Both the position numbers and the translations under genes were made by a program. From Candidatus Bipolaricaulota bacterium (lineage in GTDB: Bacteria > Bipolaricaulota > Bipolaricaulia > UBA7950 > UBA9294), in NCBI GenBank assembly GCA_026390345.1, contig JAPLGD010000046.1, positions 1-59,003 of the forward strand: a stretch of DNA of 59,003 nucleotides. Direction: 5' to 3'. Below are positions 860-34,705 of this stretch, piece after piece. Every line of letters starts with the position of its first letter. Position 1 is the stretch's first letter. The notes below the pieces were generated by a model. The model was not told the DNA's origin. It did no database searches and saw nothing but the letters and a program-made list of their open reading frames with translations.

Positions 860-2245
860 CTACTTGTGCACCTTGCGGAGGAACTCCTGAATCTCGGGCA
901 TGCCTCCCTGGAAGATGAGGTAGCCGTCGTGCGGCTCCCGCTCCGTGATCTCCCCGGCGATGGACGTCAGCATGATGTCGCGCACCCGGTCGAGGTCGTT
1001 CGTCTGTCCGAGCGCCCAGGCGAGCTTGATGTACGCCACTTCGGGGAGCATGTTCTCGGCCGGGATGATCCCCTTCGCCATGAGGTCGCGCCCGGTGTCG
1101 TAGACGAACATGTGCACGTAGCCCCATAGCGTCTGCACCGTCATGTAGATTGCGACGCCGGCCGCCGTCGCGCGCTCGATGGCGGGATAGACCGGCTTGT
1201 TGATGTGCCCTAGGCCTGTCCCGGCGATGACGATTCCCTTGTACCCGTGCTCGACAAGGGAATCGATGATGTCGGGGTGCATGTTCGGGTAGTAGTACGT
1301 GAGCGTCACCCGCTCCTCGAAGTACGGGAGGATGTCGACGTGGCGATCGTCGCGCCGACGGGCGTAGTCCTGGCGCAGCGGGGTGACCCCGTTGCGGGTG
1401 ACCGTCGCAAGCGGGATGTCTCCGATCGTGCGGAACGTCGACCGGTACGAGGAGTGCATCTTCCGCACGCGCGTCGCGCGGTGCAGCAGTCCGTACTCGT
1501 CGGATGTGGGCCCGAACATGCAGACCATGACCTCGGCGATGTCGGAGGTGGCCGCTGCAGTCGTCGAGTGAATCAGGTTTCTCGCCGCGTCGGAGGACGG
1601 GCGATCGGACGACCGCTGCGATCCGACCATGACGATCGGCACCGGCGGGTGTTGCACCATGAAGGCCAACGCGCTCGCGGTATGGTGCATCGTGTCGGTT
1701 CCATGGCCGATGACGATGCCGTCGATCCCGTTCTCGATCTCACGCCCGATGGCCTTGGCAAGCGCGATGTACTGCGTCGGCCCCATGTTCTCGGAGAACA
1801 CCGCAAACAGCTTCTCCGTCGAGAGATTGCAGATGTCGGCGAGCTCCGGCACGGCGCCGTAGAGCTCGCCGGGGGAGAACGCCGGGATCACCGCGCCGGT
1901 CCGGTAGTCGAGGCGGGAGGCGATGGTGCCGCCGGTCCCGAGGAGCTTCACGTTCGGCTTGTCGGGCGAGGTCGGGAACTCCTTTTCGGGGATCTTGTAG
2001 TGGGCCTCGCGTCGGCCGAGCTCCTTGACGCTCCGCAACGTTCGAACGTCAATGCCGACGTTATAGCCCGTAGGCAGCTTGAGGACGAGGTGCCGCGAGT
2101 CGTCGAACTCGGAGCGCGGCAGGACGATGCCGCGGAAGTGGCCGCGCGTGGAATCGATGTCCACGTCGCTCCACACGCCGACCCCGAAGCGGACGAGCGC
2201 GTCGAGGGCCTCGCCCTTGTACCCCTTGTGGGCTTCGTCGCTCAT
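860..2245 (-). CDS. gatD: Glu-tRNA(Gln) amidotransferase subunit D (archaeal-type, asparaginase-like)
   Basis: GatD N-terminal domain (LVLKLPTGYNVGI), GTGGTIASRLDYRTGAV, HGTDTM, GSQRSSDRPSSD, RKMHSSYR; ATG 2245 overlaps the gatE stop, with GAGGAGG SD. Confidence 0.95.
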   Translation of the reverse strand: MSDEAHKGYKGEALDALVRFGVGVWSDVDIDSTRGHFRGIVLPRSEFDDSRHLVLKLPTGYNVGIDVRTLRSVKELGRREAHYKIPEKEFPTSPDKPNVKLLGTGGTIASRLDYRTGAVIPAFSPGELYGAVPELADICNLSTEKLFAVFSENMGPTQYIALAKAIGREIENGIDGIVIGHGTDTMHHTASALAFMVQHPPVPIVMVGSQRSSDRPSSDAARNLIHSTTAAATSDIAEVMVCMFGPTSDEYGLLHRATRVRKMHSSYRSTFRTIGDIPLATVTRNGVTPLRQDYARRRDDRHVDILPYFEERVTLTYYYPNMHPDIIDSLVEHGYKGIVIAGTGLGHINKPVYPAIERATAAGVAIYMTVQTLWGYVHMFVYDTGRDLMAKGIIPAENMLPEVAYIKLAWALGQTNDLDRVRDIMLTSIAGEITEREPHDGYLIFQGGMPEIQEFLRKVHK

Positions 2246-4176
2246 CGCGTCGCCTCCTCGACCCACGCCGCGACCTGGGCGAGCGGGACGTTGCCCCACG
2301 CCATCGCCCGAACGTGCCCCATGATCGCGCGGTGGCGCGCTTCGGGCCTCCGCACATCGGAGCGCTTGACCTCGCGTCGGATCTCGGCCTTCACGTCCTT
2401 CTCCGCCGCCCGGCGATACTCCGCACGGGTCAGAAGCTCGTCAAACGAAGACGCCGGCTCCCGAAGGGCAAGCGGTGCCAGGACGGGAAGGACGTCGGAC
2501 GTCAGCGCTCTCTCCCGCGCCGCGTCAACCGCCCATCGGACACGCGCCGGATCGATCTCGCGGTCTCCCATGGCGTGCCGCACGTCGTGCCCGAGCAGGG
2601 TCGTTGCTGCGATCGGCTCCATGCCGCTCGCGACCAGCTCCTCGGCCAGCGGGCAGAGGTTCCGCCGCAACAGGTAGGCGTGCGTGTCCTCGGGAGCGCC
2701 CCACGCTCGCAGGAGGGCTTGCCGGGCTTCCACAGACTGCGGCAGCCGCGCCCGCGTCCCCTCGATGGCGTCCTCCTCGATCGGGATCGGCGACGAGTCG
2801 GTGTCCGGGTACATGCGATCCGGCCCTGGCAGAACGCGTTCGAAGATCGTTGTCCCGTTCGGAAGTCCCTTGCGCGTCTCGTTCGGCACCCCGGCAAAGG
2901 CGAGGCGCCCGCGCTCGATGACGGTCTCGATCGCGGTCGGAAGATCCGCGGCGGGGCCCCACACGAGGAGGACCGCGTCCTTCTCTGTCGCACCGACGCG
3001 CTTTCCGAGCTTCTGCCACGTCGCCCGCGGCAGCGGCGAAGTTCCGTCGTCGGAGTGCGCCATGTTCGGTTTCTCGATGCACGCGATGACCTTCAGCCGA
3101 TCCGAGAACTCGTCAGCGAACGAGCATCCCGGGTTCGTCGGGAAGGCAAGAAGGCCGGAGAATCCCGGCAGGCAGATGACCGCGGCGCTCGACTCCCCAG
3201 CCGCAGTTGGAGCCACGGCGGCCAGGTCCGCGCCGGACAGTGGAGCGTGCTTGGGGGCCCACGTCTTCGGGTCGCCCTCGCGCCGTTCAAGCTCGTCGCG
3301 CACGAGGAGGAGGGCCTTCTGCCGGAAGGCCTCATTGTGGGTCAGCTCGGGAATCCAGCGGATGTGCTGCACGCCCTTGATCTCGACGCGCGTGCCGCCT
3401 TCGATGCTGACGTTCACATCCTCCCGGGCGGCGCCGATGCCGACGTTCACGTGCCCCGTACTCCGCGTGAGGTAGCGAATGTAGTTCGCACCCTCGGCGG
3501 CCTCATCCGGCGTCAGCAACTCGGGTTCGGTGACGGTCTCAATCAGAGGCATCCCAAGGCGGTCAGTCGTGTAGATCCGTTCATGCCCGACGTCACTCAC
3601 CTCGCGGCACGAGTCCTCTTCGACGGAAAGCTGGCGGACGCCCACCCGCTTCCCCGCTACGGGGATGCGGCCGTCGATGCCGATGATCGCCGTACGCTGG
3701 AACCCGGTGGGGATGCTGCCGTCCAAGTACTGTTTCCGCGTGATGTGGAGCTCGCCCACGAGGCTCGTCTCGAGCAGCAACGCAACCTCGATCGCAATTC
3801 CGAGCGCCTCTCGGTTCACGGCGAATGGGGGCGTATCGTCGATGTCGTACGTGCAAGCCGTCTCGCCCTTGATTCGGTAGATGATGTTCTTCTTCGTCTT
3901 GTATTCCATCAGCGCCGTCCCGTCGTACTCGCCGAACTCGCTCAGCGTGGGACGCATGTGGCGGACGAGCTGCGCGTCGTAGTCGGCGCCGTCCTGGTAG
4001 ATACCAGCGGGACAGCGACAGAAGAGCTTCTTCTTCGTTCGGAGCTGCTGATGGACCTCGAGCCCGCAACGGAAGCCGAGTCCTCGGTAGGTATCCGCGG
4101 TGGCGTCACGGCGAGTTACATAGCCAAGTGGATTGTGGCTGTCGAGGTTTCCAGAGTTCGCGTCGGCCTTCTTCAT
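2242..4176 (-). CDS. gatE: Glu-tRNA(Gln) amidotransferase subunit E
   Basis: GFRCGLEVHQQLRTKKKLFCRCP, RKQYLDGSIPTGFQRT, EEDSCR, DRLGMPLIE, REDVNVSIEGGTRVEIKGVQ, central insertion ending AHSD, GVPNETR, PGPDRMYPDTD. Confidence 0.95.
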   Translation of the reverse strand: MKKADANSGNLDSHNPLGYVTRRDATADTYRGLGFRCGLEVHQQLRTKKKLFCRCPAGIYQDGADYDAQLVRHMRPTLSEFGEYDGTALMEYKTKKNIIYRIKGETACTYDIDDTPPFAVNREALGIAIEVALLLETSLVGELHITRKQYLDGSIPTGFQRTAIIGIDGRIPVAGKRVGVRQLSVEEDSCREVSDVGHERIYTTDRLGMPLIETVTEPELLTPDEAAEGANYIRYLTRSTGHVNVGIGAAREDVNVSIEGGTRVEIKGVQHIRWIPELTHNEAFRQKALLLVRDELERREGDPKTWAPKHAPLSGADLAAVAPTAAGESSAAVICLPGFSGLLAFPTNPGCSFADEFSDRLKVIACIEKPNMAHSDDGTSPLPRATWQKLGKRVGATEKDAVLLVWGPAADLPTAIETVIERGRLAFAGVPNETRKGLPNGTTIFERVLPGPDRMYPDTDSSPIPIEEDAIEGTRARLPQSVEARQALLRAWGAPEDTHAYLLRRNLCPLAEELVASGMEPIAATTLLGHDVRHAMGDREIDPARVRWAVDAARERALTSDVLPVLAPLALREPASSFDELLTRAEYRRAAEKDVKAEIRREVKRSDVRRPEARHRAIMGHVRAMAWGNVPLAQVAAWVEEATR

Positions 4177-4233
4177 AGCAGTGGGCGCAGGACGGACGCG
4201 AGAATCGCTCGGCCGATCGCGCTTATCGGGTAG

Positions 4234-4262
4234 ACGATAGATCTCCAGAGCGGCCGGCGCAA
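4234..4262 (-). promoter_or_regulatory. Candidate sigma70 promoter for gatED
   Basis: TTGCGC-17 nt-TATCGT on the minus strand. Confidence 0.4.
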
Positions 4263-4270
4263 GGCCGTCC

Positions 4271-4298
4271 TTGCATATCCACGATGATCTGCTATACT
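4271..4298 (+). promoter_or_regulatory. Candidate sigma70 promoter for the leader/GNAT/ABC operon
   Basis: TTGCAT-16 nt-TATACT. Confidence 0.6.
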
Positions 4299-4393
4299 GC
4301 GGGCCACTTACGGATGAACGAACCGCCGTTCGCGGCGGATGGCGAATCGTACGTGCCCTGGCAAGGCGCGCCTATCAAAGGAGGAGGCGGTTC

Positions 4394-4471
4394 ATGGCAC
4401 TAGGTCAACATAGAACTCATCCGGGAACCTCCTCGGATGGGGCGCGCGAGGGTGGATTCGCGACTCGGTAG
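4394..4471 (+). CDS. Putative 25-aa leader peptide MALGQHRTHPGTSSDGAREGGFATR
   Basis: Strong SD AAAGGAGGAGG immediately upstream; lies in a ~310-nt structured 5' leader. Confidence 0.5.
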   Translation: MALGQHRTHPGTSSDGAREGGFATR

Positions 4472-4512
4472 TCCGTAGCACTTCAGTCTTTCGCTTTCCC
4501 TCTCGACATCGT

Positions 4513-4541
4513 AGCGTCGCCGTTTGCGGCGCTCTCCTTTT
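4513..4541 (+). terminator. Candidate attenuator terminator in the leader
   Basis: AGCGTCGC-CGTTT-GCGGCGCT stem (one G-U) followed by CTCCTTTT. Confidence 0.4.
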
Positions 4542-4618
4542 CCCCATCCAGCATTCGGGGTCCCGGCCAAGAGCGTTGGGCCAGAGGAACACCGTTTGCA
4601 CCGCTCCAAGGAGCCAAC

Positions 4619-5632
4619 ATGCTGGACTACCTGCCTCACGGATACCGCCCGCGTCCCGCGAGAGCGGACGACGCGGAGGAACTCGTTGCGATGTTCAACG
4701 CCTGCTCGCGTGCCGTCGTCGGAGTCGACGAGCACGACGTTGCCGACCTCCTGGTCGAGTGGCGATCTCCCGGATTCAGCCTGGAGTCGGACGCGATCGT
4801 CGTGGAAGCCCAGAACGGATCCCTCGCCGGCTACGCCGAAGTCTGGGACACCGACGAGCCCCACGTGCGAATCTTCTCCTGGGGGCGCGTGGCTCCCAAC
4901 CACCGCGGCCTCTGCATCGGCACGTGGCTCGCCGCGTGGGAAGAGGAGCGCGCCCGGAAGGCCATCGACCGGGCTCCCGCGGATGCTCGCGTGAGTCTGC
5001 GCCAGTTTGTGTACAAGCAGGATTCTGAGGCAAACGCCCTGCTTGAGCGTCACGGATTCGCCCTCGTGCGGCTCTTCTTTCGCATGGAGGCCCCGCTCGA
5101 CATCGTCGTGCCGGAGCCGACATGGCCCGAAGGCGTCGTCGTCCGAACCTTCAACCCGGACGAGGACCTCGAGCCGATGGTCCGCGCCATCCGCGAGACG
5201 TTTCGCGACCACTGGGGGTACGTCGAGTCCTCGTTTGAGGAGGACGTCGAGGGCCTGAGACACTGGATCACGGAGGACAAGGAGTTCGATCCCGCTCTCT
5301 GGTTCCTCGTCTCCGCCAGCGGGCAGATTGTGGGCGTGACGCTGTGCTCAGCGAAAGTGCCCGGGGATCCGAACCTCGGATACGTGAACACGGTCGGCGT
5401 CGTGCGGCCATGGCGCCGGCGTGGTGTCGCCCTGGCCCTCCTCCGCCATGCCTTCGCAGAGTTCCAGAAGCGCGGGAAGGAACGTGTCGCCCTCGGCGTG
5501 GATTCGAGCAGCTTGACCGGAGCTCTGCGGCTCTACGAGGCCGCGGGGATGCACCCCGTTCGCGAGTCCCACATGTACGAGAAGGAACTGCGGCCCGGAC
5601 GGGACCTCACCACACAGAACCTGGAGGAGTAG
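4619..5632 (+). CDS. Tandem-domain GNAT N-acetyltransferase (mycothiol synthase-like architecture)
   Basis: Two acetyl-CoA motifs (VAPNHRGLCIGT; VVRPWRRRGVALALL) and ALRLYEAAGM; AAGGAG SD. Confidence 0.9.
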   Translation: MLDYLPHGYRPRPARADDAEELVAMFNACSRAVVGVDEHDVADLLVEWRSPGFSLESDAIVVEAQNGSLAGYAEVWDTDEPHVRIFSWGRVAPNHRGLCIGTWLAAWEEERARKAIDRAPADARVSLRQFVYKQDSEANALLERHGFALVRLFFRMEAPLDIVVPEPTWPEGVVVRTFNPDEDLEPMVRAIRETFRDHWGYVESSFEEDVEGLRHWITEDKEFDPALWFLVSASGQIVGVTLCSAKVPGDPNLGYVNTVGVVRPWRRRGVALALLRHAFAEFQKRGKERVALGVDSSSLTGALRLYEAAGMHPVRESHMYEKELRPGRDLTTQNLEE

Positions 5633-5634
5633 GC

Positions 5635-7416
5635 GTGCGACTTCCTTGGCGTGAGTACTTCGGATTCCTGGTGCGGTACCTTCGCCCTCAGGCACGTTGG
5701 GTTGCGCTGCTCGCTGCTCTGGTGCTCGTCACCATCGGCCTGCGCCTCGCCAACCCCCAGATCCTTCGGCAGTTCATCGACGTCGCCACGTCCGGCGGCC
5801 CGCGATCGGAGCTGATCCGGGGAGCGCTCCTCTTCTTCGGAATCGCCGTCCTCGCCCAGCTTCTGTCCGTCGCTGCGACCTACGTCGGAGAAACGGTGGC
5901 TTGGACGGCAACCAACGCACTGCGCCTCGACCTCCTGCGACACGCCCTTCATCTCGATCCGACCTTCCACAAGGACCACTCGCCCGGGCAGCTCATCGAG
6001 CGGATCGACGGAGACGTCGCGACGTTGTCGAACTTCCTTTCGCGGTTCACGATCGACGTGGTCGGGAACGCGATCCTCATTGCCGGCATCGTAGCGCTTC
6101 TGTTCCGCGAGGATTGGCGGATCGGGCTTCCGATCCTGGCATTCGTGGTTCTGACCGTGTGGATTCTCGGGCGGATTCGGAAGGTAGCCGTCCCGCACTG
6201 GACCGCGTACCGAAAGCAGATGGCCGAGTTCTTCGGCTTCGTCGGCGAGCGGCTTAGCGGGACGGAGGACGTCCGGGCGAACGGCGGCGTCCCCTACGTG
6301 ATGCGCCGTTTCTTCGACCTGGTCCGGAAGCTGTACCCGGTTCGCCTTCGTTCCGGTATTGCGGGGTACGGCATGTGGATGGCGAACGTTGCCCTGTTCA
6401 CCTTTGGCCAGGCGATCGCCTTCGGCGTCGGGGCGACCCTGTGGAGGGCCTCGATCATCACGCTCGGCACCGTGTACCTCGTCTTCTACTACACCGACCT
6501 CCTCCACGGCCCGATCTCCGCCATGCGTGAGCAGATCACCGACCTCCAACGCGCAGAGGCGGGCCTTCGCAGGATCCGGGCGATGCTGGGGACGCCGTCC
6601 AAGCTGCAGGACGACGGCCGCGAACTGCTGCCATCGGGGGCTCTCCCGGTGGTCCTCGACCGGGTTACGTTCGCCTACGAGCCGTCGCAGACCCAGGACG
6701 GCCCACCGGCCGGCGGTGACCCCGTCGTTGCCTTGCGGGACGTCACACTCGACGTGCCGGCGGGCACGACGCTGGGGCTTCTCGGCCGTACGGGAAGCGG
6801 GAAGTCGACGCTGGCCCGGCTCGTCGCGCGGCTCTACGACTGCCAGGAGGGCACCGTCAAGGTCGGGGAGTGCAACGTGCGAGACGTCGGGCTCGACCAC
6901 CTGCGAAGCCGCGTCCGCCTCGTCTCCCAGGAGGTTCAGGTCTTCCGCGCCTCGGTCCGAGAGAACGTGAGGCTATTCGACCCCTCGATCTCCGACGAGG
7001 CGATCCTCGCGGCGCTCGGCGAGCTGGGCCTGCGCGAGTGGGTTCTTGCCCTACCCTCCGGGTTGGATGCTGTCGTCGGCACCGGAGAGGCCGGCCTCTC
7101 CGCCGGACAGGGGCAGCTCCTCGCCCTGGCCCGGACGTTCCTTGCCGATCCTGCGGTCATCATCCTCGACGAGGCGTCCTCGCGCCTGGATCCCGCTACG
7201 GAGGCCCTCTTGGAGCACGCCGTGGACCGCCTGTTGGCCGGTCGCACCGCCATCGTGATTGCCCACCGGTTGTCGACCGTTCGGCGCGCCGATTCGGTTG
7301 CCATCCTCGAGGCGGGAGAGGTTCTCGAGCGCGGCAAGCGGGAAGTCTTGGCCGGCGATCCGACATCTCACCTGTCTCGCCTCCTGCGGACGGGGATGGA
7401 GGAGGTGCTGGTATGA
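5635..7416 (+). CDS. ABC exporter, fused TMD-NBD subunit 1 of a heterodimer
   Basis: GTG start after GGAGGAG; hydrophobic TMD; Walker A GRTGSGKS, degenerate signature LSAGQ, Walker B IILDE, AHR. Confidence 0.93.
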
Positions 7417-10169: not shown

Positions 10170-10790
10170 ATGCGTCTCCGCGCGGTCCTGTTTGACATGG
10201 ACGGAACGGTGTTCGATTCACACCTCGACTGGATCGAGCTTCGTCGTTCGATGGGGCTTCGTCCCGACGGACGCGCCATCATGGCCCAACTCGAGGGAGC
10301 GTCGGAGGCCGAGAGGGCGCGCTGTCTCGCCATCCTTCACGCGGCGGAGCGAAACGGAGCGGAGCGAGGGGAGATCGTCCCCGGAACCTTGGAGCTCCTC
10401 GGCGCCCTGCACGACCTCGGTATCGCCTGCGCCCTGGTCACGAACAACTCCCGAGCCAGCGCCGAGACGGTTCTCGCGAAGCATCCGATGCCCTTCGACC
10501 TCGTGATGACGCGCGACGACGGCGCGATGAAGCCCGACCCCAAGGCGCTGCTTCTTCCCCTTGCCCGTCTCGGAGTGAGCCCTCGCGACGCACTCGCGAT
10601 CGGCGACGCGCACCTCGACGCCCTCGCCGCTCACGAGGCAGGAATCGCGGAAATCCTCCTCGTCCGCCTGCCGGAGTGGATGCGGGCTCTCATCCCTCCC
10701 GACGTGGCGTATCGCGATGCGGTCGATCTCATCCAGGCGCGCGAGATCATCGAATCCCTGATCTCGGAGCGTCCTCTTCAGGCTTGCTAG
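10170..10790 (+). CDS. HAD-family hydrolase (phosphoglycolate phosphatase-like)
   Basis: LFDMDGT, LVTNN, KPDP, IGDAHLD motifs. Confidence 0.9.
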   Translation: MRLRAVLFDMDGTVFDSHLDWIELRRSMGLRPDGRAIMAQLEGASEAERARCLAILHAAERNGAERGEIVPGTLELLGALHDLGIACALVTNNSRASAETVLAKHPMPFDLVMTRDDGAMKPDPKALLLPLARLGVSPRDALAIGDAHLDALAAHEAGIAEILLVRLPEWMRALIPPDVAYRDAVDLIQAREIIESLISERPLQAC

Positions 10791-12205
10791 GGGGCGTTCT
10801 TCGTCCAGATCGTCCCTTGCGGGGAGTCCTTGAGCACGATGCCGACCTCCGCCAAGCGATCGCGGATTCGGTCACCTAGGGCGAATTCCTTCCGACGCCG
10901 CAGCTCGCCGCGCAACTCGACCAGGAGGTCCATGAGCTCCGCCTCGCAGCCACGGTCGGCGGCGGCCTGTCGCTGAAAGAGGCCGAGGGGACAGCCGAGT
11001 TCGCGCACGAGCGCCGCGGCTTCGCGCAAGGCCCGCCGGTCTTCGCCGGTCGCCTCGGCGCGGAACCGGTTGATCTCATTCACCAACTCCTGGATGACGC
11101 CCAGTCCGCCGACGGTGTTGAAGTCGTCGTCCATGACCTCGACGTACCGATCGCGGAACTTTGCAAGCTTCCTGACGAAGTCGCGCCCGCCCGTCCCCGG
11201 CGGACCGTCGTCGCCGCGCAACTCGGAGTCCGCATCCTCCAACAGGCGGCGAACTCGGGCCACGGCGGCGGCGGCGGCGTCCAAACCCTCGTCCGAGAAG
11301 TCGAGCGGCTTGCGGTAGTGGCGGGAGAGGTAGAAGTACCAGACCGTCTCGGCCTCGTGCTTCTCCAGGATCTCGTAGGCGTAGCGGAAGTTGCCGAGCG
11401 ACTTGTGCATCTCCTGCTCGCCCATGTGCAGCATGCCGTTGTGCATCCAGAATCGGAAGAACGGCTTGTCGCTCGTCACCCGGGCCTGTGCGATCTCGTT
11501 CTCGTGGTGCGGGAAGATGAGGTCGTTCCCGCCGGCGTGGATGTCGAGACGCTCGCCGAGGTGCTTGCGCGACATGACGACGCACTCGGTATGCCAACCG
11601 GGCCTGCCGCGGCCCCACGGCGAGGGCCAATCGGGCTCGCCCGGCTTCGCCGCCTTCCAGAGCGTGAAGTCGAGCGCGTTCTCCTTCCGATCGGACACCT
11701 CGACGCGCGACCCGGCTTCCTGCTCGTCGAGACTTCTCCCGGATAGCCGGCCGTAGCCTTCGACGGACGACACGCGGAAGTAGACATCGCCGTCGCGCAC
11801 GTAGGCGGACCCGTTGTCGACCATGCGCGCGATCAGCTCCACCATCTCGCCGATGTGTTCCGTCGCCCGCGGGCTCGCCGACGGGCGCTCGACGCCGAGA
11901 GCGTCCTGAAGGGCGAAGTAGGCGTCTGTGTACGTCCTTGCGAGAGCCTCGACCGACTGCCCCGTCTCGGCCGCTCGGTTGATCAGCTTATCATCGACGT
12001 CGGTCACGTTCTGAACGTAGACGACGCGCCACCCGTGGAACGCCTCCAGGTACCGCCGGAGGGCATTGAAGACCAGCACCGGCCGCACGTTGCCGATGTG
12101 CAGGTGGTCGTAAACCGTGGGGCCACAGACGTACATCCCCACGGTGCTGCCGTCGGACGGAACGAACTCTTCGAGGCTCTTCGTCAGGGTGTTGTACAGT
12201 CGCAT
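10787..12205 (-). CDS. cysS: Cysteine--tRNA ligase
   Basis: MYVCGPTVYD, HIGN, NVTDVDDK, GRPGWHTEC, FPHHENE, KMSKS variant EMHKSLGN, DRIRDRL. Confidence 0.97.
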   Translation of the reverse strand: MRLYNTLTKSLEEFVPSDGSTVGMYVCGPTVYDHLHIGNVRPVLVFNALRRYLEAFHGWRVVYVQNVTDVDDKLINRAAETGQSVEALARTYTDAYFALQDALGVERPSASPRATEHIGEMVELIARMVDNGSAYVRDGDVYFRVSSVEGYGRLSGRSLDEQEAGSRVEVSDRKENALDFTLWKAAKPGEPDWPSPWGRGRPGWHTECVVMSRKHLGERLDIHAGGNDLIFPHHENEIAQARVTSDKPFFRFWMHNGMLHMGEQEMHKSLGNFRYAYEILEKHEAETVWYFYLSRHYRKPLDFSDEGLDAAAAAVARVRRLLEDADSELRGDDGPPGTGGRDFVRKLAKFRDRYVEVMDDDFNTVGGLGVIQELVNEINRFRAEATGEDRRALREAAALVRELGCPLGLFQRQAAADRGCEAELMDLLVELRGELRRRKEFALGDRIRDRLAEVGIVLKDSPQGTIWTKNAP

Positions 12206-16377: not shown

Positions 16378-17328
16378 CTACTCTTCCACGGTCGCGCTCA
16401 TCGCCCCGTAGTAGGTCGAGCAGCCGTCCGTCTCGCTTTCGTCCCCGACGATAATCCACCAGGATCCGCCCGCCGACAGATCGGCCCCAACGTCCCCCGT
16501 GTAGCGAACCTCGCCGTCCACGGCCAACGTGCACGCGTCGGCCGAGTAGGAGAGGACGTACGTATACCACTGGTACACCGCAGGCTTGAACGACACGGGG
16601 AGGATCGCGTCGGAGCCGTCTCCGGACGGCTCGTGAATGGTGGCTCCGTCCGACGTACCCGAGTAAACGAAGTACGGAAGTCCCGCAGCCGGGAGGTCGA
16701 ATCGAGAACGCCCGGGTGCGATGACGAACCCGTACCCCGCGTGGCTCTTGGTCGTCATCACCTCAAACGAGAACACGAGCTTCTGCCCGACACGAAGCGG
16801 AGGAATCGCAACGGCGGCGCCGCGGCGATGAAACCGATCGGTTGCGCTGTGGATGTAGAGGCAGTACCCCACGCCGTCCGACGACAGGTAGTCGATCCCC
16901 CCCTCTTCCTCGATGGCCGAGGTCGGGTCGAGGGCCCACCGTCCCAGGGCGGCAACGCCGTCGGAGAAGTCCTCCGCGAAGAGCCGTGTCCCGGTCCGCG
17001 CATAGACAGTCAGCTCCCGTGAGACCGTATCGGTGCGCCCCTCTCCGTCCGTCACCGTGAGGGTGATCGGGTACACCCCGGGGGCCGCAAAGCTGCTTGT
17101 GATCTGCTCCCCGGACTCTCTGACTCCGCTTCCGAGGGTCCAGGCGTAGTCGACGATGTCTCCGGAGGAGACGGACGCGTCGAGCGCTACGTCCTCTCCT
17201 GCGTACAAGACCACGGGCGAGACGTCGAAGTCGGCTACGGGCGCGGCCGAGAGGAGCGAGCAGCCGTAGAGCAGGCCGCCGCACACCAGTAGGCCGGCAA
17301 GCACGAAGTACCCGCGGCGCTTCCTCAC
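16378..17328 (-). CDS. PKD-domain lipoprotein
   Basis: Signal peptide with lipobox-like LLYGC; PKD motif (YAWTLG...PGVYPITLTVTDGEG); beta-rich C-terminal domain. Confidence 0.8.
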   Translation of the reverse strand: MRKRRGYFVLAGLLVCGGLLYGCSLLSAAPVADFDVSPVVLYAGEDVALDASVSSGDIVDYAWTLGSGVRESGEQITSSFAAPGVYPITLTVTDGEGRTDTVSRELTVYARTGTRLFAEDFSDGVAALGRWALDPTSAIEEEGGIDYLSSDGVGYCLYIHSATDRFHRRGAAVAIPPLRVGQKLVFSFEVMTTKSHAGYGFVIAPGRSRFDLPAAGLPYFVYSGTSDGATIHEPSGDGSDAILPVSFKPAVYQWYTYVLSYSADACTLAVDGEVRYTGDVGADLSAGGSWWIIVGDESETDGCSTYYGAMSATVEE

Positions 17329-18428
17329 GTGCCCACCTGGATGAGCCGGTCCTTCGGGAATGACGTGATCACTTCGCAGCCTTCGTCAGTGATCACGACG
17401 TCGTCTTCGATCCGTACGCCGCCGACCCCCGGAATGTAGACCCCCGGCTCGATGGTCGTGACCATTCCCCGAGCGAGCGTGTCCTTGCTCTGCGGGGAGA
17501 GCGCGGGCCTCTCGTGGATCTCGAGTCCAATCCCGTGGCCCAGCCCGTGTCCGAATCGATCTCCGTACCCGGCCTTCTTGATCAGGTCGCGAGCTGCGGC
17601 GTCGACCTCGATTCCCGTGGCGCCTGCGCGAGCGACCGCGATCGCGGCGATATTCGCTTGCAGCACGACGTCGTAGATCGCTTGGGCTTGGCCGGAGGGC
17701 TTGCCCACGGACAGGGTTCTCGTGATGTCGGACCGGTAGCCGTTCACGCAAGCCCCGAAGTCGAACAGGAGCAGATCCCCGCGGCGCAACTCGCTCCGCC
17801 CGAGAACCGGGTTGTAGTGGTTGAGCGCGGAGTTCTCGCCGGCCGACACGTTGATGTCGAACGCGATCCCCTCGGATCCCGCCTCGCGCATCAGCCATTC
17901 GAGTCGAAGAGCTACCTGTGCCTCGTCCATCCCCACGCGAATCTCGGGTACCAGTCGAGCCATGGCGTCGTCGGCGAGCCGCGCGGCCTTTCGGAGGCTC
18001 TCGATCTCCGTGGGCGACTTGACGGCGCGCAGGTCGTTCACCAGGTCCGCCTCGGGAACGAGGGTCGGCCCACCGAGCTTGCCGGTCGCGTCAAACCAGT
18101 GCTGCGTGACGCGTTTCGAAACGATCGCGACGCGCTCGAGTCCGAGCCCTTGGAGAACCGACACGATGCCAGCGCCCATCCAGTCACGCTCTTCCTGGAT
18201 ACGGATCTCTGCGGTCTCGCGCCCGACCTGCTCGGTGTAGCGCGAGTCCGTGACGAGAACAGTCTCCTTCGCAGACACGACCAAGGCGCCCTCGCCCGTG
18301 AACCCGCACAAGTACCGCAGGCTCGCGCGATCTGAACCCTCGTAGTTGTAGAGAAGAACGGCCTTCTCGGTGAGCCGCTCGATGAGCGCGCTCCGGCGTG
18401 CCGCGACGTCTTTCGTTTCGTGGGTCAC
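17325..18428 (-). CDS. Xaa-Pro aminopeptidase (M24B)
   Basis: DFG...GYRSDITRT, HGLGHGIGLEIHE, TIEPG, RIEDD; GTG start after GGAGGG. Confidence 0.95.
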   Translation of the reverse strand: MTHETKDVAARRSALIERLTEKAVLLYNYEGSDRASLRYLCGFTGEGALVVSAKETVLVTDSRYTEQVGRETAEIRIQEERDWMGAGIVSVLQGLGLERVAIVSKRVTQHWFDATGKLGGPTLVPEADLVNDLRAVKSPTEIESLRKAARLADDAMARLVPEIRVGMDEAQVALRLEWLMREAGSEGIAFDINVSAGENSALNHYNPVLGRSELRRGDLLLFDFGACVNGYRSDITRTLSVGKPSGQAQAIYDVVLQANIAAIAVARAGATGIEVDAAARDLIKKAGYGDRFGHGLGHGIGLEIHERPALSPQSKDTLARGMVTTIEPGVYIPGVGGVRIEDDVVITDEGCEVITSFPKDRLIQVGT

Positions 18429-18528
18429 GTTGCCCTCCGACGTGTGATGGTGTGGCGGTGGCGAGCCGACGAGGCGCTCCCGTTCGGCCCCGAAGGAGCC
18501 GTGCTCGTTCGGCCCCCGATTGCAGAGA

Positions 18529-18578
18529 ACTATACGCGCGGAAGTGTCCTTGTCAATAGAAGAAGCGACCGCTATAAT
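18529..18578. promoter_or_regulatory. Back-to-back divergent promoters sharing the -35 region TTGTCAA
   Basis: Plus strand: TTGTCA(18550)-17-TATAAT(18573) toward pheS; minus strand: TTGACA(18556)-16-TATAGT(18534) toward the peptidase. Confidence 0.75.
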
Positions 18579-18588
18579 CCCCGGCCAA

Positions 18589-19596
18589 ATGGCGAAACTG
18601 GCGGACCTGCGAGACGACATCAAGAAGGTCGAGGCGGATCTCGGTGCTCAGCTTGAGGCGATCGACGATCCGTCCTCGCTTGAGGCGTTTCGGGTCGAGT
18701 TCCTGGGGAGAAAGGGACGCATCTCCGCCCTTCTGAAACAGCTCGGTGCCGTCGAGCCGGCCGAGCGCGCTCAGGCCGGCCAGTGGCTCAACGATCTCAA
18801 GGATCGAAGCGCCTCCGCATTCTCCGCGAGGGAGACCGAGCTTCGCCGGCGCGCTATGGATGACCGCCTTGCCAAGGAGCGCGCAGACGTCACGCTTCCC
18901 GGCGTCTACCGACCCTACGGACACGCCCACCCGCTATCGAAGGTCCAGGAAGAGATCGAGTCGATCTTTATGCGGATGGGATTCGACGTCGCCACGGGGC
19001 CCGAGATTGAGACCGAGTACTACAACTTCGAGGCGCTCAACATCCCGGCCGACCATCCGGCACGTGCCGATTGGGACACGTTCTACATCACGGACTCTAC
19101 GCTCCTTCGACCTCACACCTCTCCAGTGCAGATCCGGGTGATGGAGCGAAGCACCCCGCCCGTCCGCATCATCTGTCCTGGGCGGTGCTACCGGCGAGAC
19201 GCTCAGGACGCGACCCACTCGCCCGTGTTCCATCAGATCGAGCTTCTGTGGGTCGAGGAGGGGCTTTCGCTCGCGAACCTCAAGTTCGTTCTCGAGCTCT
19301 TCACCAAGGAGTACTTCGGGCCGGGATACGAAATGCGGTTCTCCGGTGACTTCTTCCCGTTCACCGAGCCGTCGGTCCAGGTGCACATCAAAGCCCCCGG
19401 CGCATCGCACTGGCTCGAGATCATGGGAGCGGGGATGGTGGATCCCGCCGTGCTCACCGCAGTCGGCTACGACCCGGAGCGCATCACCGGCTTCGCCTTC
19501 GGCCTCGGCATCGAGCGCATGGCGATGCTGAAGTACGGGATCGACGACATCCGGACGTTCCTGACGAACGACCTTCGATTCGTCCATCAGCTCTGA
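18589..19596 (+). CDS. pheS: Phenylalanine--tRNA ligase alpha subunit
   Basis: NFEALNIPADHPAR, LLRPHTSPVQ, DATHSPVFHQ, FPFTEPS, GFAFGLGIER. Confidence 0.97.
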   Translation: MAKLADLRDDIKKVEADLGAQLEAIDDPSSLEAFRVEFLGRKGRISALLKQLGAVEPAERAQAGQWLNDLKDRSASAFSARETELRRRAMDDRLAKERADVTLPGVYRPYGHAHPLSKVQEEIESIFMRMGFDVATGPEIETEYYNFEALNIPADHPARADWDTFYITDSTLLRPHTSPVQIRVMERSTPPVRIICPGRCYRRDAQDATHSPVFHQIELLWVEEGLSLANLKFVLELFTKEYFGPGYEMRFSGDFFPFTEPSVQVHIKAPGASHWLEIMGAGMVDPAVLTAVGYDPERITGFAFGLGIERMAMLKYGIDDIRTFLTNDLRFVHQL

Positions 19597-19608: not shown

Positions 19609-20847
19609 CTATCCTGACCGTCGGAAGAGAAGCACCGCATTCTGTCCGCCGAACCCGAACGAGTTCGACAGCGCAACACGAATCTCCATCGTCGTGGCTC
19701 GAGGGGTGTAGTCAAGGTCGCACGCGGGGTCGGGCGTCTCGTAGTTGAGCGTCGCAGGAATGAAGGCGTGTTCCATGGACAGAAGCGTCGCGATGGCCTC
19801 CACGCCTCCCGCCGCGCCCAGCAGGTGGCCGACCTGCGACTTCGTGGAGCTGATCTTCACCGTCCGCGCGGCCTCACCGAGCGCGCGCTTGATCGCCATG
19901 GTCTCGATGCGATCGTTCGGCTCGGTCGACGTGCCGTGGGCGTTGATGTAGTCGACATCCTCCGGCCGAAGCCCCGCTCGGGAAAGGGCCATCTCGATCG
20001 CGCGCCGCGCCCCATCGCCGTCCTCCGCGGGGGAGGTGATGTGGAACGCGTCGCCCGTCATCCCGAACCCGGCGAGCTCGGCGTAGACGTGCGCCCCCCG
20101 GCGCTCGGCCCGCTCGGCGTCCTCCAGCACAAGGAATCCCGCACCCTCTCCCATAACGAAGCCGTCGCGGTCGCGGTCGAACGGTCGCGACGCTCGTTCG
20201 GGTTCCTCATTTCGCTTCGACAGGGCGCCGATGCGCGCGAACCCGGCGAACGTAATGCGGAGCATCACCGACTCCGCTCCCCCAGCGAGGATCATGTCCG
20301 CAAGCCCCGAGGCGATCCACTCCCCGGCGATCCCGATCGCGTGCGACCCACTCGCGCAGGCCGACACCACGCCGAAGTTGACGCCACGAAGGCCGTACTC
20401 GATCGAGATCTCGCCGGCCAGCGCGTTCGGCATGAGCCGTGTCACGAAGAACGGGCTGACTCGTCGGGGGCCGCGTTGCTCGAGTTCCCCGACGTTCTCG
20501 ACGAACGTCTCCATCCCCCCGATCCCGGTCCCGGAGACGACGCCCGAGCGATCGGGGTCGTAGTCGTCCGCGCCAAGTCCGGCGTCGCGCAGGGCAAGCC
20601 CCGCCGAGACGAGGGCCAGTTGCCCCGAACGATCGAGGTGTCGTGCCCGTTTCGGATCGAGGTGGGCCGTCGGATCGAAGTCGATGAGGGGCGCCCCGAT
20701 CTTGACGTCGATGTCGGTGAGGTCGATGACGTCGTCGACTCGCCGCACGCCGCTCCGCCCGCTCCGGAGCCCCTCCCAGAAGGCATCTCTGCCGGTTCCG
20801 ATCGGCGTGATCGGCCCGACACCGGTGACGATGACGCGCCTACGCAT
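19609..20847 (-). CDS. fabF: 3-oxoacyl-ACP synthase II
   Basis: SACASG, INAHGTST, TKSQVGHLLGAAG, SNSFGFGG. Confidence 0.96.
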   Translation of the reverse strand: MRRRVIVTGVGPITPIGTGRDAFWEGLRSGRSGVRRVDDVIDLTDIDVKIGAPLIDFDPTAHLDPKRARHLDRSGQLALVSAGLALRDAGLGADDYDPDRSGVVSGTGIGGMETFVENVGELEQRGPRRVSPFFVTRLMPNALAGEISIEYGLRGVNFGVVSACASGSHAIGIAGEWIASGLADMILAGGAESVMLRITFAGFARIGALSKRNEEPERASRPFDRDRDGFVMGEGAGFLVLEDAERAERRGAHVYAELAGFGMTGDAFHITSPAEDGDGARRAIEMALSRAGLRPEDVDYINAHGTSTEPNDRIETMAIKRALGEAARTVKISSTKSQVGHLLGAAGGVEAIATLLSMEHAFIPATLNYETPDPACDLDYTPRATTMEIRVALSNSFGFGGQNAVLLFRRSG

Positions 20848-22020: not shown

Positions 22021-22881
22021 TTAGCGTCCCAGCACCGTTCCGAGATCCGCCGCCTCGAACAGCTGGAAACTTCGCCCAGCCTCGTGAACCAGGCCGACGA
22101 GAAGATACCCCTCCGCGAACAACCGTTCGAATACGTCGCGCGTCGCCAGTCGCCATCGCCGAGCCTCGTCGGGAGCCGCCTCGCGCAACGCATCGAGGTG
22201 CGCGGGCACCTCCACGAGAAGGTGCGGACCCGTCGCGCTCCGGTCGATGTCGAGAAGCACCCGCTGGCCCGACGAGCCAGCAGTCGTCTTCGTAAGGACC
22301 GCCATCTCGTGGAGGCCGAGCCGATAGTGCGCAGCCTGGCGGCCCTCATCGACCACGGCCGTCGTCCTCGGGGCGCGCACCCACCACTCGACTCCCACGC
22401 GGTCGGTAGCCAGGCCGGCGTTCTGCCGGTCGTGGAGTTCGCCAAAGACGCTCCGCTCGTACCGCGAACCCACGGCGCCGAGCTTGTTCAGAGCGAGGTG
22501 TGTTTCGTCACCCCGCAGCGGGTCGATCCACCATCGGATCACTTCAACTCCGCGCTCGCCGGCCGCGGCACGCTCCGCCCTGCGAAGCGCGGACGCGACT
22601 CCGGCGTCGCGTCGCTGAGGCGACACTCCAAGGAACAACGTGAAGAGACCGGAGAAGCCTTCGTGCGTCCCCGCCAGGTCCACCAGCATGCCCGCCAGAA
22701 CGCGCGCCGGAGGCGACATATCCCACGCGCCCAGGATCAGCCCGCCGCTGTCGTGGACGACCCGCAGCGTGGGAACGTCGCACGTCGGCCGAGCGGCGTG
22801 CTCTCCGCGCACGTCCAGTTCCAAGCGCTCGCACGTCCGCCAAACCTCGAGTCCGGCGAGCCGCTCAACTTCGATATTCAT
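22021..22881 (-). CDS. GNAT-superfamily acetyltransferase (COG3375-like)
   Basis: GGLILGAW, LGVSPQRRDAGVASAL, IRWWIDPL, NKLGA, TDRVGVEW, ARRWRLATR. Confidence 0.8.
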   Translation of the reverse strand: MNIEVERLAGLEVWRTCERLELDVRGEHAARPTCDVPTLRVVHDSGGLILGAWDMSPPARVLAGMLVDLAGTHEGFSGLFTLFLGVSPQRRDAGVASALRRAERAAAGERGVEVIRWWIDPLRGDETHLALNKLGAVGSRYERSVFGELHDRQNAGLATDRVGVEWWVRAPRTTAVVDEGRQAAHYRLGLHEMAVLTKTTAGSSGQRVLLDIDRSATGPHLLVEVPAHLDALREAAPDEARRWRLATRDVFERLFAEGYLLVGLVHEAGRSFQLFEAADLGTVLGR

Positions 22882-25636
22882 CGGCCCGGTCGATGTGGCG
22901 CGACTTCTTGTCGCTGTACATCCTGCGGTCGACCTCGGACAGAAGCGACTCCAGCGAACGCGTGTCGCCCGGCTTGCGGGTGTAGATGCCGATGCTGAGG
23001 CCGATGTCGAGGTCGCCGATGCCGGTTCTCCTCGGCACGAGCAAGATGCGATCGTGGAGCCGATCCGCGACGAGGTTCGCTTCGTCCTCCTCCGTCTCCG
23101 GCATGAAGACGAGGAACTCGTCGCCGCCGTACCGGATGACCCGGTCCGACGTTCGCACGTTTTCATTGAGGAAGACGGCCACCTGTTGCAGCACTTCGTC
23201 GCCGCGCAGGTGCCCGAATCGGTTATTCACGGCCCGAAATCCATCGACGTCGATCATCACCACCGAGAACGGGTGCGCGTAGCGGTCACTTCGAGAGAGC
23301 TCCGGGGCGATGATCGAGTTGAAGTAGTGTCGGTTGAACAGACCCGTCAGCGGGTCGCGCACCGCCTGCTCGCGGAGCGTCATCTGCGACGCCAGGTTGG
23401 AGATCGCCGTCGCAAGGTGGCTTGCGATGACCTCCACGAGCTGCCGGTCCTCCTCGTCGAAGAACCCTGTCTCGCTGCTCTCGATGTTGAGAACCCCAAC
23501 CAGCCGGTCCCCGAACAGGAGGGGTACGGCAAGCTCGGACCGCGCCGACGGGAGCGCCTCGTAGTACCGCGGATCGGAGTGAACGTCGGAGACGAGCGCC
23601 GCGCGTTTGTTCCGGGCCGCCCAGGACACGATCCCTTTTCCCGTTGGCAACTTCCATCCGGACTCCACGCCGACCGAGTCATACGGGCCTCGAGTCCCCG
23701 CGGCGTACAACCGCTCGTCCCGATCCAGGAGGAAGATCGACGTGAGTTGGTAGTCGAACTGGTCGACGAGGAAGTCGAGCGCGCTGGCAACGATCTGCTC
23801 AACGGTCGTCGCCGCGGCGACTCGCTGCCCGAGCCCGTAGATGCGCGCCAACGCGTCTCGCCGATTCAGCGCGGAGATCGCCACCGACACCTGCCCCGCG
23901 ATCGCCGAGAGGACCTCGACATCCTGCTCGCCAAACGCCGCGAGGCGCCTGCTTTCTACGTCAATCGCGCCGGCCGCCCGCCGCTTGCCGATGATCGGCA
24001 CGGCGACCATCGATCGAATTGACGCTCGCGACTCCTTGTACCGCGCGTCGTCCGCGACGTCGGGGACGACGACCGGCTCGACATAGTTGATCGCCCACCG
24101 AGTGACTCCTTCCCCTTCCGTCGGGGTCCGCGTCCCTTTGGCGGGAACCTCGTGCCGGGGGAACACGCCGTCGGACGCCGTGCCGCGGAGCACGAGATCC
24201 GTTCCCTCGCGCATCCAAATCCCGCAGTAGTCCTGAGCCAGGTCGTCGCGAATCCTCCGTGCCGCAGCGTCGCACAACGCATCTAGACTCTGGATGTTCG
24301 CAAGCTCGTCGCCGAACTGCGAAAGGCTGTGAAGACGCTCCTTCTGTCGGCGAAGCAGATCCAGTTTGTAGACGTGCTCGATGGCCAGCGCCGCGAGGTT
24401 CGCCAGCGAAGCCACGGGCTCGATCGACGACACCGTCGGCACGCTCTGGTCCACCGGATCGTCCACGGAGATCGACCCGATGATCCCCGCCGTCCCGCGA
24501 AGCGGGATGAACAGCAGGTCGTCCTTGTGCCATCCCTCGAGCGTCACGGTTCCCGATAGACCGAGGTTGGCGGTCCACGGGACTTCGTCGTGGGGGATGT
24601 AGTACGCCGGACCCAGGCGGAAGCGCTCCTCGAACACCTCGCGGCGCTCGGACGGTGACATCGGGGGCTGCTCGAAGAGCGCCTTCCTCTCCTCCGGAGA
24701 AAGCCCCGAGCAGAGAATCTTCTCGGTTCCTCCCTCGAGTGGGACGAGGGTTGAGAGATCGTAGAGCGACAGCACGGCGCGCCGGAACCCGCTGTACTCG
24801 GTGATGGTGTCCAGAACGAGCTGCAAGATCCGGTCGATGTTCGGCTCCGCCAGGATCACCTCGCCCAGCTCGAGGACGATGCGATTCAGTCGACGCAATC
24901 GGACTTCGCGAGAGATGTCCCGGACGGTTCCCTCGATCCGCGCACCCCGCGTGCCGTCCAGAAGCCGCGTGCTGACCTCGACCACATGCTCGGCCCCGCC
25001 CTTCTCGACCATCCGATACGTGCGCGGACCGTCGGCCCCGACGCCCTGCGCGCGCGCTGCGAGCCCCTGCACCGCTCGTTCCCGATCGTCGAGCCCCACA
25101 AGCTCCTCGGGTCGCCGCCCGAGCAGCTCCTCACGGGTGTAGCCGGATGCGTCGACAAGGTACTCGTTGACGTACGTAATGCGCCCGTCAACCGACTCAA
25201 ACACCCCGACGGGAATTCGTTCGATCAGGTCTCGGGCATGCTCGGCCGCCTTCGCGGTCGCGCGATCCTCGCGCGCCTGCGCCGCTGCGCTCCGGACGAT
25301 CTCGAGAAGGACCGTCGCGTCCGGCGGATGGGGCAACCACAGCCGCGCACCAGCGAGAAGCGCAGCGGTTCCCGCGACCGCATCCCCGCTCTCGACGAGT
25401 ACCAGGACCGGAGTTCTTCCGGTCTGGCCGCCCTCCTCCGGCCGGTGGATCTCGGGACACGCCTCGTCCGACCCGAGGAAGAGGAGAACGACATCTGCGG
25501 CGTCCGCCCTCGCCTCGCTCCACTGACGTGCCACGTCGGTCGCGTACCCGGCGGTCTTCAGTGCCTCTTTGGCCGCCCGACAACGGGCGGCCGACGGGCA
25601 GACAATGAGGATGTTGCCGCGAGCGTTCTCGCTCAA
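22865..25636 (-). CDS. Diguanylate cyclase: pseudo-REC / PAS / three GAF / GGDEF
   Basis: DPLTGLFNR, DVDGFRAVN, GHLRGD, I-site RTSD, RYGGDEF; TTG start overlaps the era stop. Confidence 0.92.
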   Translation of the reverse strand: MSENARGNILIVCPSAARCRAAKEALKTAGYATDVARQWSEARADAADVVLLFLGSDEACPEIHRPEEGGQTGRTPVLVLVESGDAVAGTAALLAGARLWLPHPPDATVLLEIVRSAAAQAREDRATAKAAEHARDLIERIPVGVFESVDGRITYVNEYLVDASGYTREELLGRRPEELVGLDDRERAVQGLAARAQGVGADGPRTYRMVEKGGAEHVVEVSTRLLDGTRGARIEGTVRDISREVRLRRLNRIVLELGEVILAEPNIDRILQLVLDTITEYSGFRRAVLSLYDLSTLVPLEGGTEKILCSGLSPEERKALFEQPPMSPSERREVFEERFRLGPAYYIPHDEVPWTANLGLSGTVTLEGWHKDDLLFIPLRGTAGIIGSISVDDPVDQSVPTVSSIEPVASLANLAALAIEHVYKLDLLRRQKERLHSLSQFGDELANIQSLDALCDAAARRIRDDLAQDYCGIWMREGTDLVLRGTASDGVFPRHEVPAKGTRTPTEGEGVTRWAINYVEPVVVPDVADDARYKESRASIRSMVAVPIIGKRRAAGAIDVESRRLAAFGEQDVEVLSAIAGQVSVAISALNRRDALARIYGLGQRVAAATTVEQIVASALDFLVDQFDYQLTSIFLLDRDERLYAAGTRGPYDSVGVESGWKLPTGKGIVSWAARNKRAALVSDVHSDPRYYEALPSARSELAVPLLFGDRLVGVLNIESSETGFFDEEDRQLVEVIASHLATAISNLASQMTLREQAVRDPLTGLFNRHYFNSIIAPELSRSDRYAHPFSVVMIDVDGFRAVNNRFGHLRGDEVLQQVAVFLNENVRTSDRVIRYGGDEFLVFMPETEEDEANLVADRLHDRILLVPRRTGIGDLDIGLSIGIYTRKPGDTRSLESLLSEVDRRMYSDKKSRHIDRADEYRS

Positions 25637-29910: not shown

Positions 29911-29992
29911 TGCGTGTAAGATGCACTTCGAAGAAGCGGGCCGGGCGCCCCAGCGCGCGCCGGGAGGCGAAGTCCGGATCTGGCAGTGGAGC

Positions 29993-34631: not shown

Positions 34632-34705
34632 TGGGAGATCGTTTAATGGCAGGACGACAGGCTCTGGCCCTGTTAGTGGAGGTTCGAATCCCCCTCTCCC
34701 AACCA
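34632..34705 (+). tRNA. tRNA-Gln(CTG)
   Basis: Acceptor TGGGAGA/TCTCCCA, anticodon arm ACAGG-CTCTGGC-CCTGT, T-loop TTCGAAT, discriminator A plus encoded CCA; one A-C mismatch in the T-stem. Confidence 0.96.

Follow-up and report, generated by a model that had tools for sequence, protein, structure and literature searches.

A gatE-gatD gene pair in a bacterial genome

The stretch of DNA analysed here (the window; 59,003 nucleotides) is the whole of contig C23 of a 1.98-Mb metagenome-assembled draft genome labelled Candidatus Bipolaricaulota (119 contigs, estimated to be 92.5% complete and 1.89% contaminated). Near its start, two adjacent genes on the minus strand encode the predicted subunits of a GatDE-type, tRNA-dependent amidotransferase. 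The first, gatE (2242-4176), starts with ATG and encodes a kinase/amidotransferase subunit of 644 residues that falls in what we call below the bacterial-type clade. The second, gatD (860-2245), encodes an asparaginase-family glutaminase subunit of 461 residues; it lies within an open reading frame at 860-2299 (minus strand), and the in-frame ATG at 2245-2243 is its start. The genes overlap in an ATGA (2242-2245, minus strand), where the gatE stop codon TGA (2244-2242) and the gatD start codon have bases in common. This overlap suggests that the translation of gatE and gatD may be coupled. An initial annotation, made from the sequence alone, had described an intact gatE-gatD pair with this overlap and with recognisable catalytic motifs, and the reading frames, the model scores and the overlap all agree with that description.

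Profile hidden Markov models for GatD and GatE are far ahead of those for AnsA and GatB, in a comparison that the initial annotation had itself proposed. GatE scores 384.2 bits against TIGR00134 (gatE_arch; cut-off 319.55) and 441.1 bits against NF003107, slightly below the cut-off of 456, with model positions 5-622 of 630 aligned. The best GatB model reaches 121 bits, below its cut-off of 338. GatD scores 508 bits against TIGR02153 (gatD_arch; cut-off 324) and 505 bits against NF003217 (cut-off 310), and the type I asparaginase model TIGR00519 gives 373 bits, 135 below the GatD model. Pfam matches GatB_N (PF02934, 162.7 bits) on GatE, and GatD_N (PF18195), Asparaginase_N (PF00710) and Asparaginase_C (PF17763) on GatD. 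The GatD-specific N-terminal domain covers GatD residues 27-72 (2030-2167, minus strand; 47.1 bits, cut-off 25.7). Both proteins align along their length with archaeal chains of known structure: GatE with 2d6f_C (302 bits) and 1zq1_C (291 bits), GatD with 1zq1_A (412 bits) and 2d6f_A (396 bits). The GatD stretches GTGGTIAS, HGTDTM and VRKMH align with identical stretches of 1zq1_A and 2d6f_A, and we take these to hold the asparaginase-type catalytic threonines, aspartate and lysine.

The predicted architecture of GatE is also complete. PF02934 matches with 277 profile positions spread over 436 GatE residues, an insert of some 160 residues dividing the match. Together with the structural model, this describes a cradle (catalytic) domain at residues 37-472 (2761-4068, minus strand) that is interrupted by an inserted alpha/beta domain. 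An AlphaFold2 model built from a 38-row alignment (predicted local distance difference test score, pLDDT, 91; predicted template modelling score 0.89) places strands and helices at about residues 305-457. The top fold matches of this model are 1zq1_C and 2d6f_D/C (template modelling scores of 0.79-0.81 on the target, over 512-552 alignment columns), with GatB chains next. The model further predicts a C-terminal helical tail at residues 578-643 (2248-2445, minus strand), YqeY-like by position and carrying the motif IMGHVRAMAWGN, with helices at 578-584, 592-605, 611-626 and 632-643 and pLDDT above 90. Among 73 columns that are near-invariant in 27 archaeal-type GatE sequences, 67 are identical in the window GatE.

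The closest known systems are the archaeal GatDE enzymes of Methanothermobacter thermautotrophicus (2D6F) and Pyrococcus abyssi (1ZQ1). They have the same two subunits, encoded here by adjacent genes, and both they and the window pair have the GatD N-terminal domain, the asparaginase fold, the GatE cradle, the inserted domain and the helical tail; several near-invariant archaeal GatE residues are nevertheless replaced here. Type I L-asparaginase (AnsA) shares the catalytic fold and motifs of GatD; the window GatD differs in its additional GatD_N domain and in its coupling to gatE. Bacterial GatCAB carries out the same overall reaction on Glu-tRNA(Gln), and GatB is homologous to GatE, as the 121-bit match shows. 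In GatCAB, however, ammonia comes from the amidase GatA, whereas in GatDE it comes from the asparaginase-type GatD and there is no GatC; GatB is also without the inserted domain that GatE has. By sequence and predicted fold, then, this is a true GatDE pair and not AnsA plus GatB.

The host is bacterial and the genes are maintained

Since the genome is a metagenome-assembled draft in 119 contigs with 1.89% estimated contamination, one could suppose that gatDE is archaeal DNA misjoined or misbinned into a bacterial genome. We regard this as hardly credible. The pair shares its 59-kb contig with genes for CysRS (10787-12205, 493 bits), FabF (19609-20847, 556 bits), a GGDEF protein (22865-25876, domain match) and ribosomal protein S1 (29921-31795, 713 bits). 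The bacterial neighbours rpsA and fabF named in the initial annotation were thus both recovered on the same contig. Its remark on a high-GC codon style like that of the neighbours also holds, with a third-position guanine-plus-cytosine (GC) fraction of 0.86 in gatD and 0.81 in gatE and 0.75-0.89 in neighbouring frames. Continuity toward the bacterial genes, a check that it had called for, is given by Logan contigs from two runs (which may be source samples of the genome assembly). They cover 3695-6462, from inside gatE to the GNAT and ABC-transporter genes, at even depths of about 26 and about 36. The distribution of the pair is stronger evidence than this contig continuity: 31 of the family's 73 other genomes have it, and it also lies on large bacterial-titled contigs of up to 3.8 Mb. 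The host is bacterial and the locus is not an assembly chimera.

Purifying selection acts on both genes. In comparisons with two relatives from the same genus, the ratio of nonsynonymous to synonymous substitution rates (dN/dS) of gatD is 0.048 (dS 0.38) and 0.032 (dS 0.57), and that of gatE, over 463-464 codons, is 0.155 (dS 0.56) and 0.141 (dS 0.81).

GatDE coexists with GlnRS

The window genome encodes a full-length GlnRS (contig C56; 653 bits, cut-off 425.8) and two glutamine synthetases. Its sole GluRS is bacterial-type (391 bits summed, the gene being truncated where its contig stops). The genome has no archaeal GluRS above cut-off. A genome-wide search of the same draft found no GatA, and no GatB either, the sole match to GatB being gatE itself (88 bits). 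Among 41 related genomes, GlnRS is above cut-off in 30; GatB was found in five families of the class, but in none of the 29 searched genomes of the order to which the window belongs, nor in one additional family. Relatives that lack GatDE also lack GatB and have GlnRS. We conclude that this lineage uses GlnRS and has lost GatCAB, and that part of it has added GatDE. Because GlnRS is present in the same genome, GatDE is a second, accessory route and not the sole pathway.

The canonical setting of GatDE, a host that lacks GlnRS and has an archaeal-type non-discriminating GluRS, is therefore not what we find here. According to one review (PMC9499178), no archaeon has GlnRS, whereas here a bacterial host has both GlnRS and a GluRS of the bacterial type. 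The initial annotation had set GatDE against "GatCAB or GlnRS" as the Gln-tRNA pathway of the organism, and this contrast is overturned by the presence of GlnRS and glutamine synthetase. The gene search that it proposed gave a mixed outcome: glnS and a bacterial gltX were found, and GatA, GatB and, in this draft, AsnRS were not.

That GatDE could be the only or the main route to Gln-tRNA(Gln), replacing both GatCAB and GlnRS, as that annotation implied, seems very improbable to us. The lack of GatA and GatB in the genome, and of GatB in the 29 searched genomes of the order, would fit such a role, as would a Cloacimonadota-labelled GatDE carrier (G390, a possibly incomplete genome) in which neither GlnRS nor GatB was found. 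The full-length 653-bit GlnRS on contig C56 speaks against it, as do the relatives that manage with GlnRS and with neither GatDE nor GatB. So does the occurrence of GlnRS in nine of ten carriers from other phyla and in 85 of 90 carriers from one order, which are described below.

Three related proposals were also rejected. Transamidation on tRNA as the sole source of glutamine is excluded by the two glutamine synthetase genes, at least one of which is present in 37 of the 41 relatives. A replacement of missing AsnRS by GatDE is excluded since relatives with GatDE, same-genus ones among them, also have AsnRS, which is present in 34 of the 41 genomes overall. In the window draft AsnRS is not above cut-off (best match 109 bits); the absence looks like a gap in the draft, because tRNA-Asn is also missing from this 92%-complete assembly. 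Finally, no co-transferred archaeal GluRS was found.

The retention of a tRNA-dependent amidotransferase despite direct synthetases has a likeness in Deinococcus, Thermus and Bdellovibrio, where GatCAB is explained by tRNA-dependent asparagine synthesis. Since glutamine synthetase is present here, an analogous explanation, in which the enzyme is the only route to the amino acid, fails for the window GatDE. In those three genera GatCAB is kept beside GlnRS and AsnRS, according to the abstract of PMC4206432.

Two side observations concern the synthetases of this genome. Contig C19 (3160-4023, minus strand) encodes a 347-residue protein whose match to the AsnRS model is confined to the catalytic half (positions 133-451, 109 bits); it resembles the AsnRS-like asparagine synthetase paralogues, and truncated AsnRS-like copies of this kind occur in many relatives. 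The GluRS (contig C8, 2-1120, minus strand; locus L021) has about 45 residues fewer than E. coli-like GluRS chains, with its residues 95-102 aligning to residues 97-142 of 8i9i_A, and the GluRS frames of relatives are also short, at about 432-440 residues.

The candidate tRNA(Gln) substrates and the first-base-pair loop of GatE

The window carries a gene for tRNA-Gln(CUG) at 34632-34705 (plus strand, ARAGORN), and a second gene, for tRNA-Gln(UUG), is on contig C105. Both are candidate substrates and both start with a U1-A72 first pair. In this they differ from archaeal tRNA(Gln), which has A1-U72, a pair on which archaeal GatDE is reported to depend (PMC9499178). The tRNA-Gln(CUG) gene occurs in 38 of the 41 relatives, independent of GatDE (38 and 39 of 41 for the two tRNA(Gln) genes). 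A dedicated archaeal-like tRNA(Gln) was considered and rejected, as both genes have U1-A72 and are present regardless of GatDE.

PMC2811023 describes recognition of the first base pair and of the D-loop by both GatDE and bacterial GatCAB. There, the 3-10 turn K183-E186 of Staphylococcus aureus GatB senses U1-A72, and its counterpart in GatE is a short, conserved, positively charged loop for recognition of the first base pair. By alignment to 2df4_B, the loop in the window GatE is at residues 241-248 (GHVNVGIG; 3433-3456, minus strand), with N244-I247 opposite GatB K183-E186. Most of the 27 archaeal-type GatE sequences read (K/R)-(V/A)-(K/R)-R-G here, mostly V-K-R-G. The loop is altered in the bacterial-type clade. 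The window GatE and its closest relative read V-N-V-G (the reading of locus L028), and the other 14 named bacterial-type rows are mostly V-R-T-G; four of them carry V, I or R at the T position. The window GatE therefore lacks the conserved, positively charged form of this loop. We infer that the loop and the other changes fixed across the clade may be an adaptation to the bacterial U1-A72 tRNA(Gln).

Distribution within the phylum

The search for GatD across 184 genomes of the phylum gave 32 carriers, which all belong to the family of the window (f1); among 110 genomes from ten other families there were none. By genus, GatD is present in 8/8, 8/8, 2/2 and 2/2 genomes of four genera and in 0/11, 0/6 and 0/4 of three others. 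In a genome of another genus, as in the window, roughly 30 kb separates gatDE from tRNA-Gln(CUG) on a single contig. GatD relatives that are 84-85% identical carry the NCBI labels "Candidatus Bipolaricaulota" or "Candidatus Acetothermia bacterium".

Spread among other bacterial phyla

A scan with the window GatD of one genome per species gave at least 600 pattern matches, at least 594 of which encode a relative, some of them possibly asparaginases. The statements on neighbours, titles and identities that follow refer to the best 80 of these at least 594 relatives. Their GatD proteins are 71-93% identical to the window GatD and come, by record title, from more than ten phyla. The titles include Zixibacteria, Ignavibacteria, Bacteroidales/Lentimicrobium, Acidobacteria, Aminicenantes, Holophagae and Cloacimonadota, and further Neomarinimicrobiota, Desulfatiglandaceae, Phycisphaerae, "Clostridia", "Chloroflexia" and "Thermotogae". 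gatE adjoins gatD in 78 of 81 sources (the 80 loci and the window). Besides gatE there is no conserved partner gene, no other neighbour being common to more than 13 of the 81 sources.

The pair is nearly always found beside GlnRS in this large bacterial-type clade. In a Bacteroidales-labelled order, among 201 evenly drawn genomes, GatD is above cut-off in 90 and GlnRS in 191, and 85 of the 90 GatD carriers have GlnRS (two tables matched by hand). Among ten GatDE carriers of other phyla, GlnRS is present in nine and GatB in three. The latter three genomes (G041, G044 and G045, with loci L046, L054 and L041) have GlnRS, GatB and GatDE together, and so three potential routes to Gln-tRNA.

Compared with the window proteins, those of five genomes from other phyla show 72-78% identity for GatD and 51-55% for GatE, whereas the values for CysRS are 39-44% and for S1 30-37%. 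Since GatD and GatE are far more alike than CysRS and S1, the pair must have moved between phyla long after these diverged. The confinement of the genes to one family and the high cross-phylum identity of GatD indicate that the window lineage most likely obtained the pair from another bacterium. For this lineage, then, the archaea-to-bacteria transfer proposed in the initial annotation is not supported.

Its other proposal, that of an unrecognised bacterial GatDE clade, is borne out by the relatives in many phyla. No paper on a bacterial GatDE was found in the full-text literature, where mostly open-access articles and main texts only were covered, and two 2022 reviews describe GatDE as exclusive to archaea and as an "archaeal signature protein" (PMC8762117, PMC9499178). 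In NCBI and JGI, bacterial proteins of this kind already carry the names GatD and GatE.

Evolutionary origin of the clade

When 1.84 billion cluster representatives were searched with GatE, similarity dropped in a step, from about 55 representatives at 40-71% identity to the rest at 30-39%. GatE trees were rooted with GatB from relatives. In a quick tree of 75 rows, the bacterial-type clade comprises 45 rows with a Shimodaira-Hasegawa-like approximate likelihood ratio test support of 100; in a careful LG+G4 tree of 48 rows, it comprises 18 rows with support of 100/100 and a stem of 0.34. This full support separates it from the archaeal GatE. Its sister is a group of Heimdallarchaeota/Asgard-labelled GatE, the support of the joint node being 96 (quick tree) and 94/84 (careful tree). 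Loki-, Hel- and Promethearchaeota-labelled sequences are the next branches, and TACK-labelled and further sequences are on the opposite side. A tree in which the 27 archaeal-type rows are held as one clade is, however, kept by the approximately unbiased (AU) test (log-likelihood difference 10.3, p = 0.203). A transfer from an Asgard-like source is thus favoured, not demonstrated. The GatE phylogeny with archaeal homologues that the initial annotation had suggested therefore yields a separate bacterial-type clade with an Asgard sister group as the favoured arrangement. The old, ameliorated transfer that it envisaged applies at best to the clade as a whole.

The clade could instead be an old lineage outside all archaeal GatE, a relic from before the split that spread among bacteria later. 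Such an origin is compatible with the AU test, under which a single clade of archaeal-type rows is still acceptable, and with the long and fully supported stem. A presence of GatDE in the last common ancestor has also been proposed, in work cited in PMC9499178. The best tree, on the other hand, nests the clade beside the Heimdall/Asgard-labelled group within an Asgard-labelled assemblage, and the patchy bacterial distribution with high similarity across phyla fits transfer and not old vertical descent. We find the relic origin rather doubtful and favor an Asgard-like source.

Three GatE sequences labelled Thermoplasmata or Thermoplasmatota archaeon (P0290, P0367 and P0368; labels unconfirmed) are inside the bacterial-type clade. 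P0290 pairs with a protein labelled "Bacteroidetes bacterium", and the contig that encodes it measures 5.16 Mb. This suggests mislabelled bins or a transfer back into archaea.

Proposed function and significance

We suggest that the pair is a working, coupled GatE-GatD tRNA-dependent amidotransferase in a bacterium, accessory beside GlnRS and belonging to a mobile, bacterial-type clade. Taken as a whole we consider this reading probable, with real room for doubt. By homology, GatD would hydrolyse glutamine or asparagine to release ammonia, GatE with ATP would phosphorylate the side-chain carboxyl of the glutamate carried by tRNA(Gln), and the ammonia would then amidate the activated glutamate to give Gln-tRNA(Gln). 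The enzyme would either salvage or make use of the Glu-tRNA(Gln) that GluRS produces, and would be accessory, not essential. Our best guess is that, where bacteria have lost GatCAB, it offers Glu-tRNA(Gln) a corrective or back-up route. It may spread between bacterial phyla as a self-contained two-gene module, and the altered GatE loop may suit the bacterial U1-A72 tRNA(Gln).

Several points weigh against this reading. Six positions that are near-invariant in archaeal GatE are changed in the window protein (G234R, Q252E, G354A, G371N, E377D and M623R), and the Pfam domains GAD and GatB_Yqey have no match in it at E <= 0.001. The genome has no A1-U72 tRNA(Gln), though archaeal GatDE is reported to need that pair, and among the relatives examined no tRNA gene co-varies with GatDE. 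The 42 of 73 other family genomes that have neither GatDE nor GatCAB show that the enzyme is dispensable there. The presence of GlnRS leaves no demonstrated need for it, and a discriminating GluRS would leave it without a substrate. We found no literature report of enzyme activity for any bacterial GatDE. The naming of the host is also affected, as a record titled "uncultured Thermotogae bacterium" appears to come from the window's family, so that the phylum name is likely and not certain.

Some of these points would be accounted for by the main alternative, in which the bacterial-type GatDE has changed its job, and either acts with its ATP-dependent amidation chemistry intact on another acyl-tRNA or tRNA-like substrate or serves mainly as a regulated glutaminase/asparaginase. 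This would explain the persistence of GatDE beside GlnRS, which coexists with it almost everywhere tested and is joined by GatCAB in three of the ten genomes. The changes at archaeal-invariant GatE positions would also fit, for four of them (G234R, G371N, G354A and M623R, the last in the tail motif) are fixed across the bacterial-type clade in addition to those in the first-base-pair loop. In the tail, the MG...G motif is retained, but R stands in for M623, and the bacterial-type rows have other residues at the archaeal RGK. GatE also evolves three to four times faster than GatD. Against a new job, 67 of the 73 near-invariant GatE columns and the catalytic stretches of GatD are retained. For GatE, the model recovers the complete architecture with high confidence, insert and tail included, and GatE chains are its best match. 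No conserved neighbour points to another pathway, and the AsnRS of GatDE-bearing relatives makes a role on Asp-tRNA(Asn) unneeded. We therefore judge a change of job unlikely and prefer the accessory amidotransferase.

The separate lines can be joined in a more speculative picture, which we put forward tentatively and would sooner expect to need revision. GatDE would then be no archaeal signature. Possibly derived from a Heimdall-like Asgard lineage, it would have spread through GlnRS-using anaerobic phyla, with its loop and tail retuned to U1-A72 tRNA(Gln) or to a new substrate, and would act as a conditional second route to Gln-tRNA (such as an asparagine-driven one, or one that operates at low free glutamine) or in the proofreading of Glu-tRNA(Gln).

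The bacterial clade alters the view of GatDE as an archaeal signature and of the split between the domains in their indirect routes to Gln-tRNA. It also raises the puzzle of why an indirect route that consumes ATP is retained beside GlnRS. Because the GatDE family here faces U1-A72 instead of A1-U72, the clade represents a natural experiment in tRNA recognition. The possible Asgard link, if true, would be a further case of inter-domain transfer of translation components.

Upstream region and other genes of the window

Between gatE and a divergent GNAT gene is an unusually long non-coding stretch of about 440 nucleotides (4177-4618). An Rfam search upstream of gatE found no family (one chance-level match, E = 0.22), and a promoter and terminator scan gave nothing above chance. 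Only the final 80 or so nucleotides of the stretch are conserved with the closest relative.

The GC fraction is 0.57-0.60 at 38000-50000, compared with 0.64-0.69 across most of the first 30 kb. Two genes lie in this low-GC region. One encodes a peptide/nickel ABC-transporter binding protein (42204-43841); the other is glycerate 2-kinase-like (46023-47414), and its best models are archaeal, both below cut-off. Elsewhere in the window, a TIGR00529 (AF0261-type) membrane protein (50333-51700) and a PepQ-like peptidase (17325-18623) each have an archaeal-named best model, again below cut-off. These last two matches hint that the genome may hold further archaeal-like genes.

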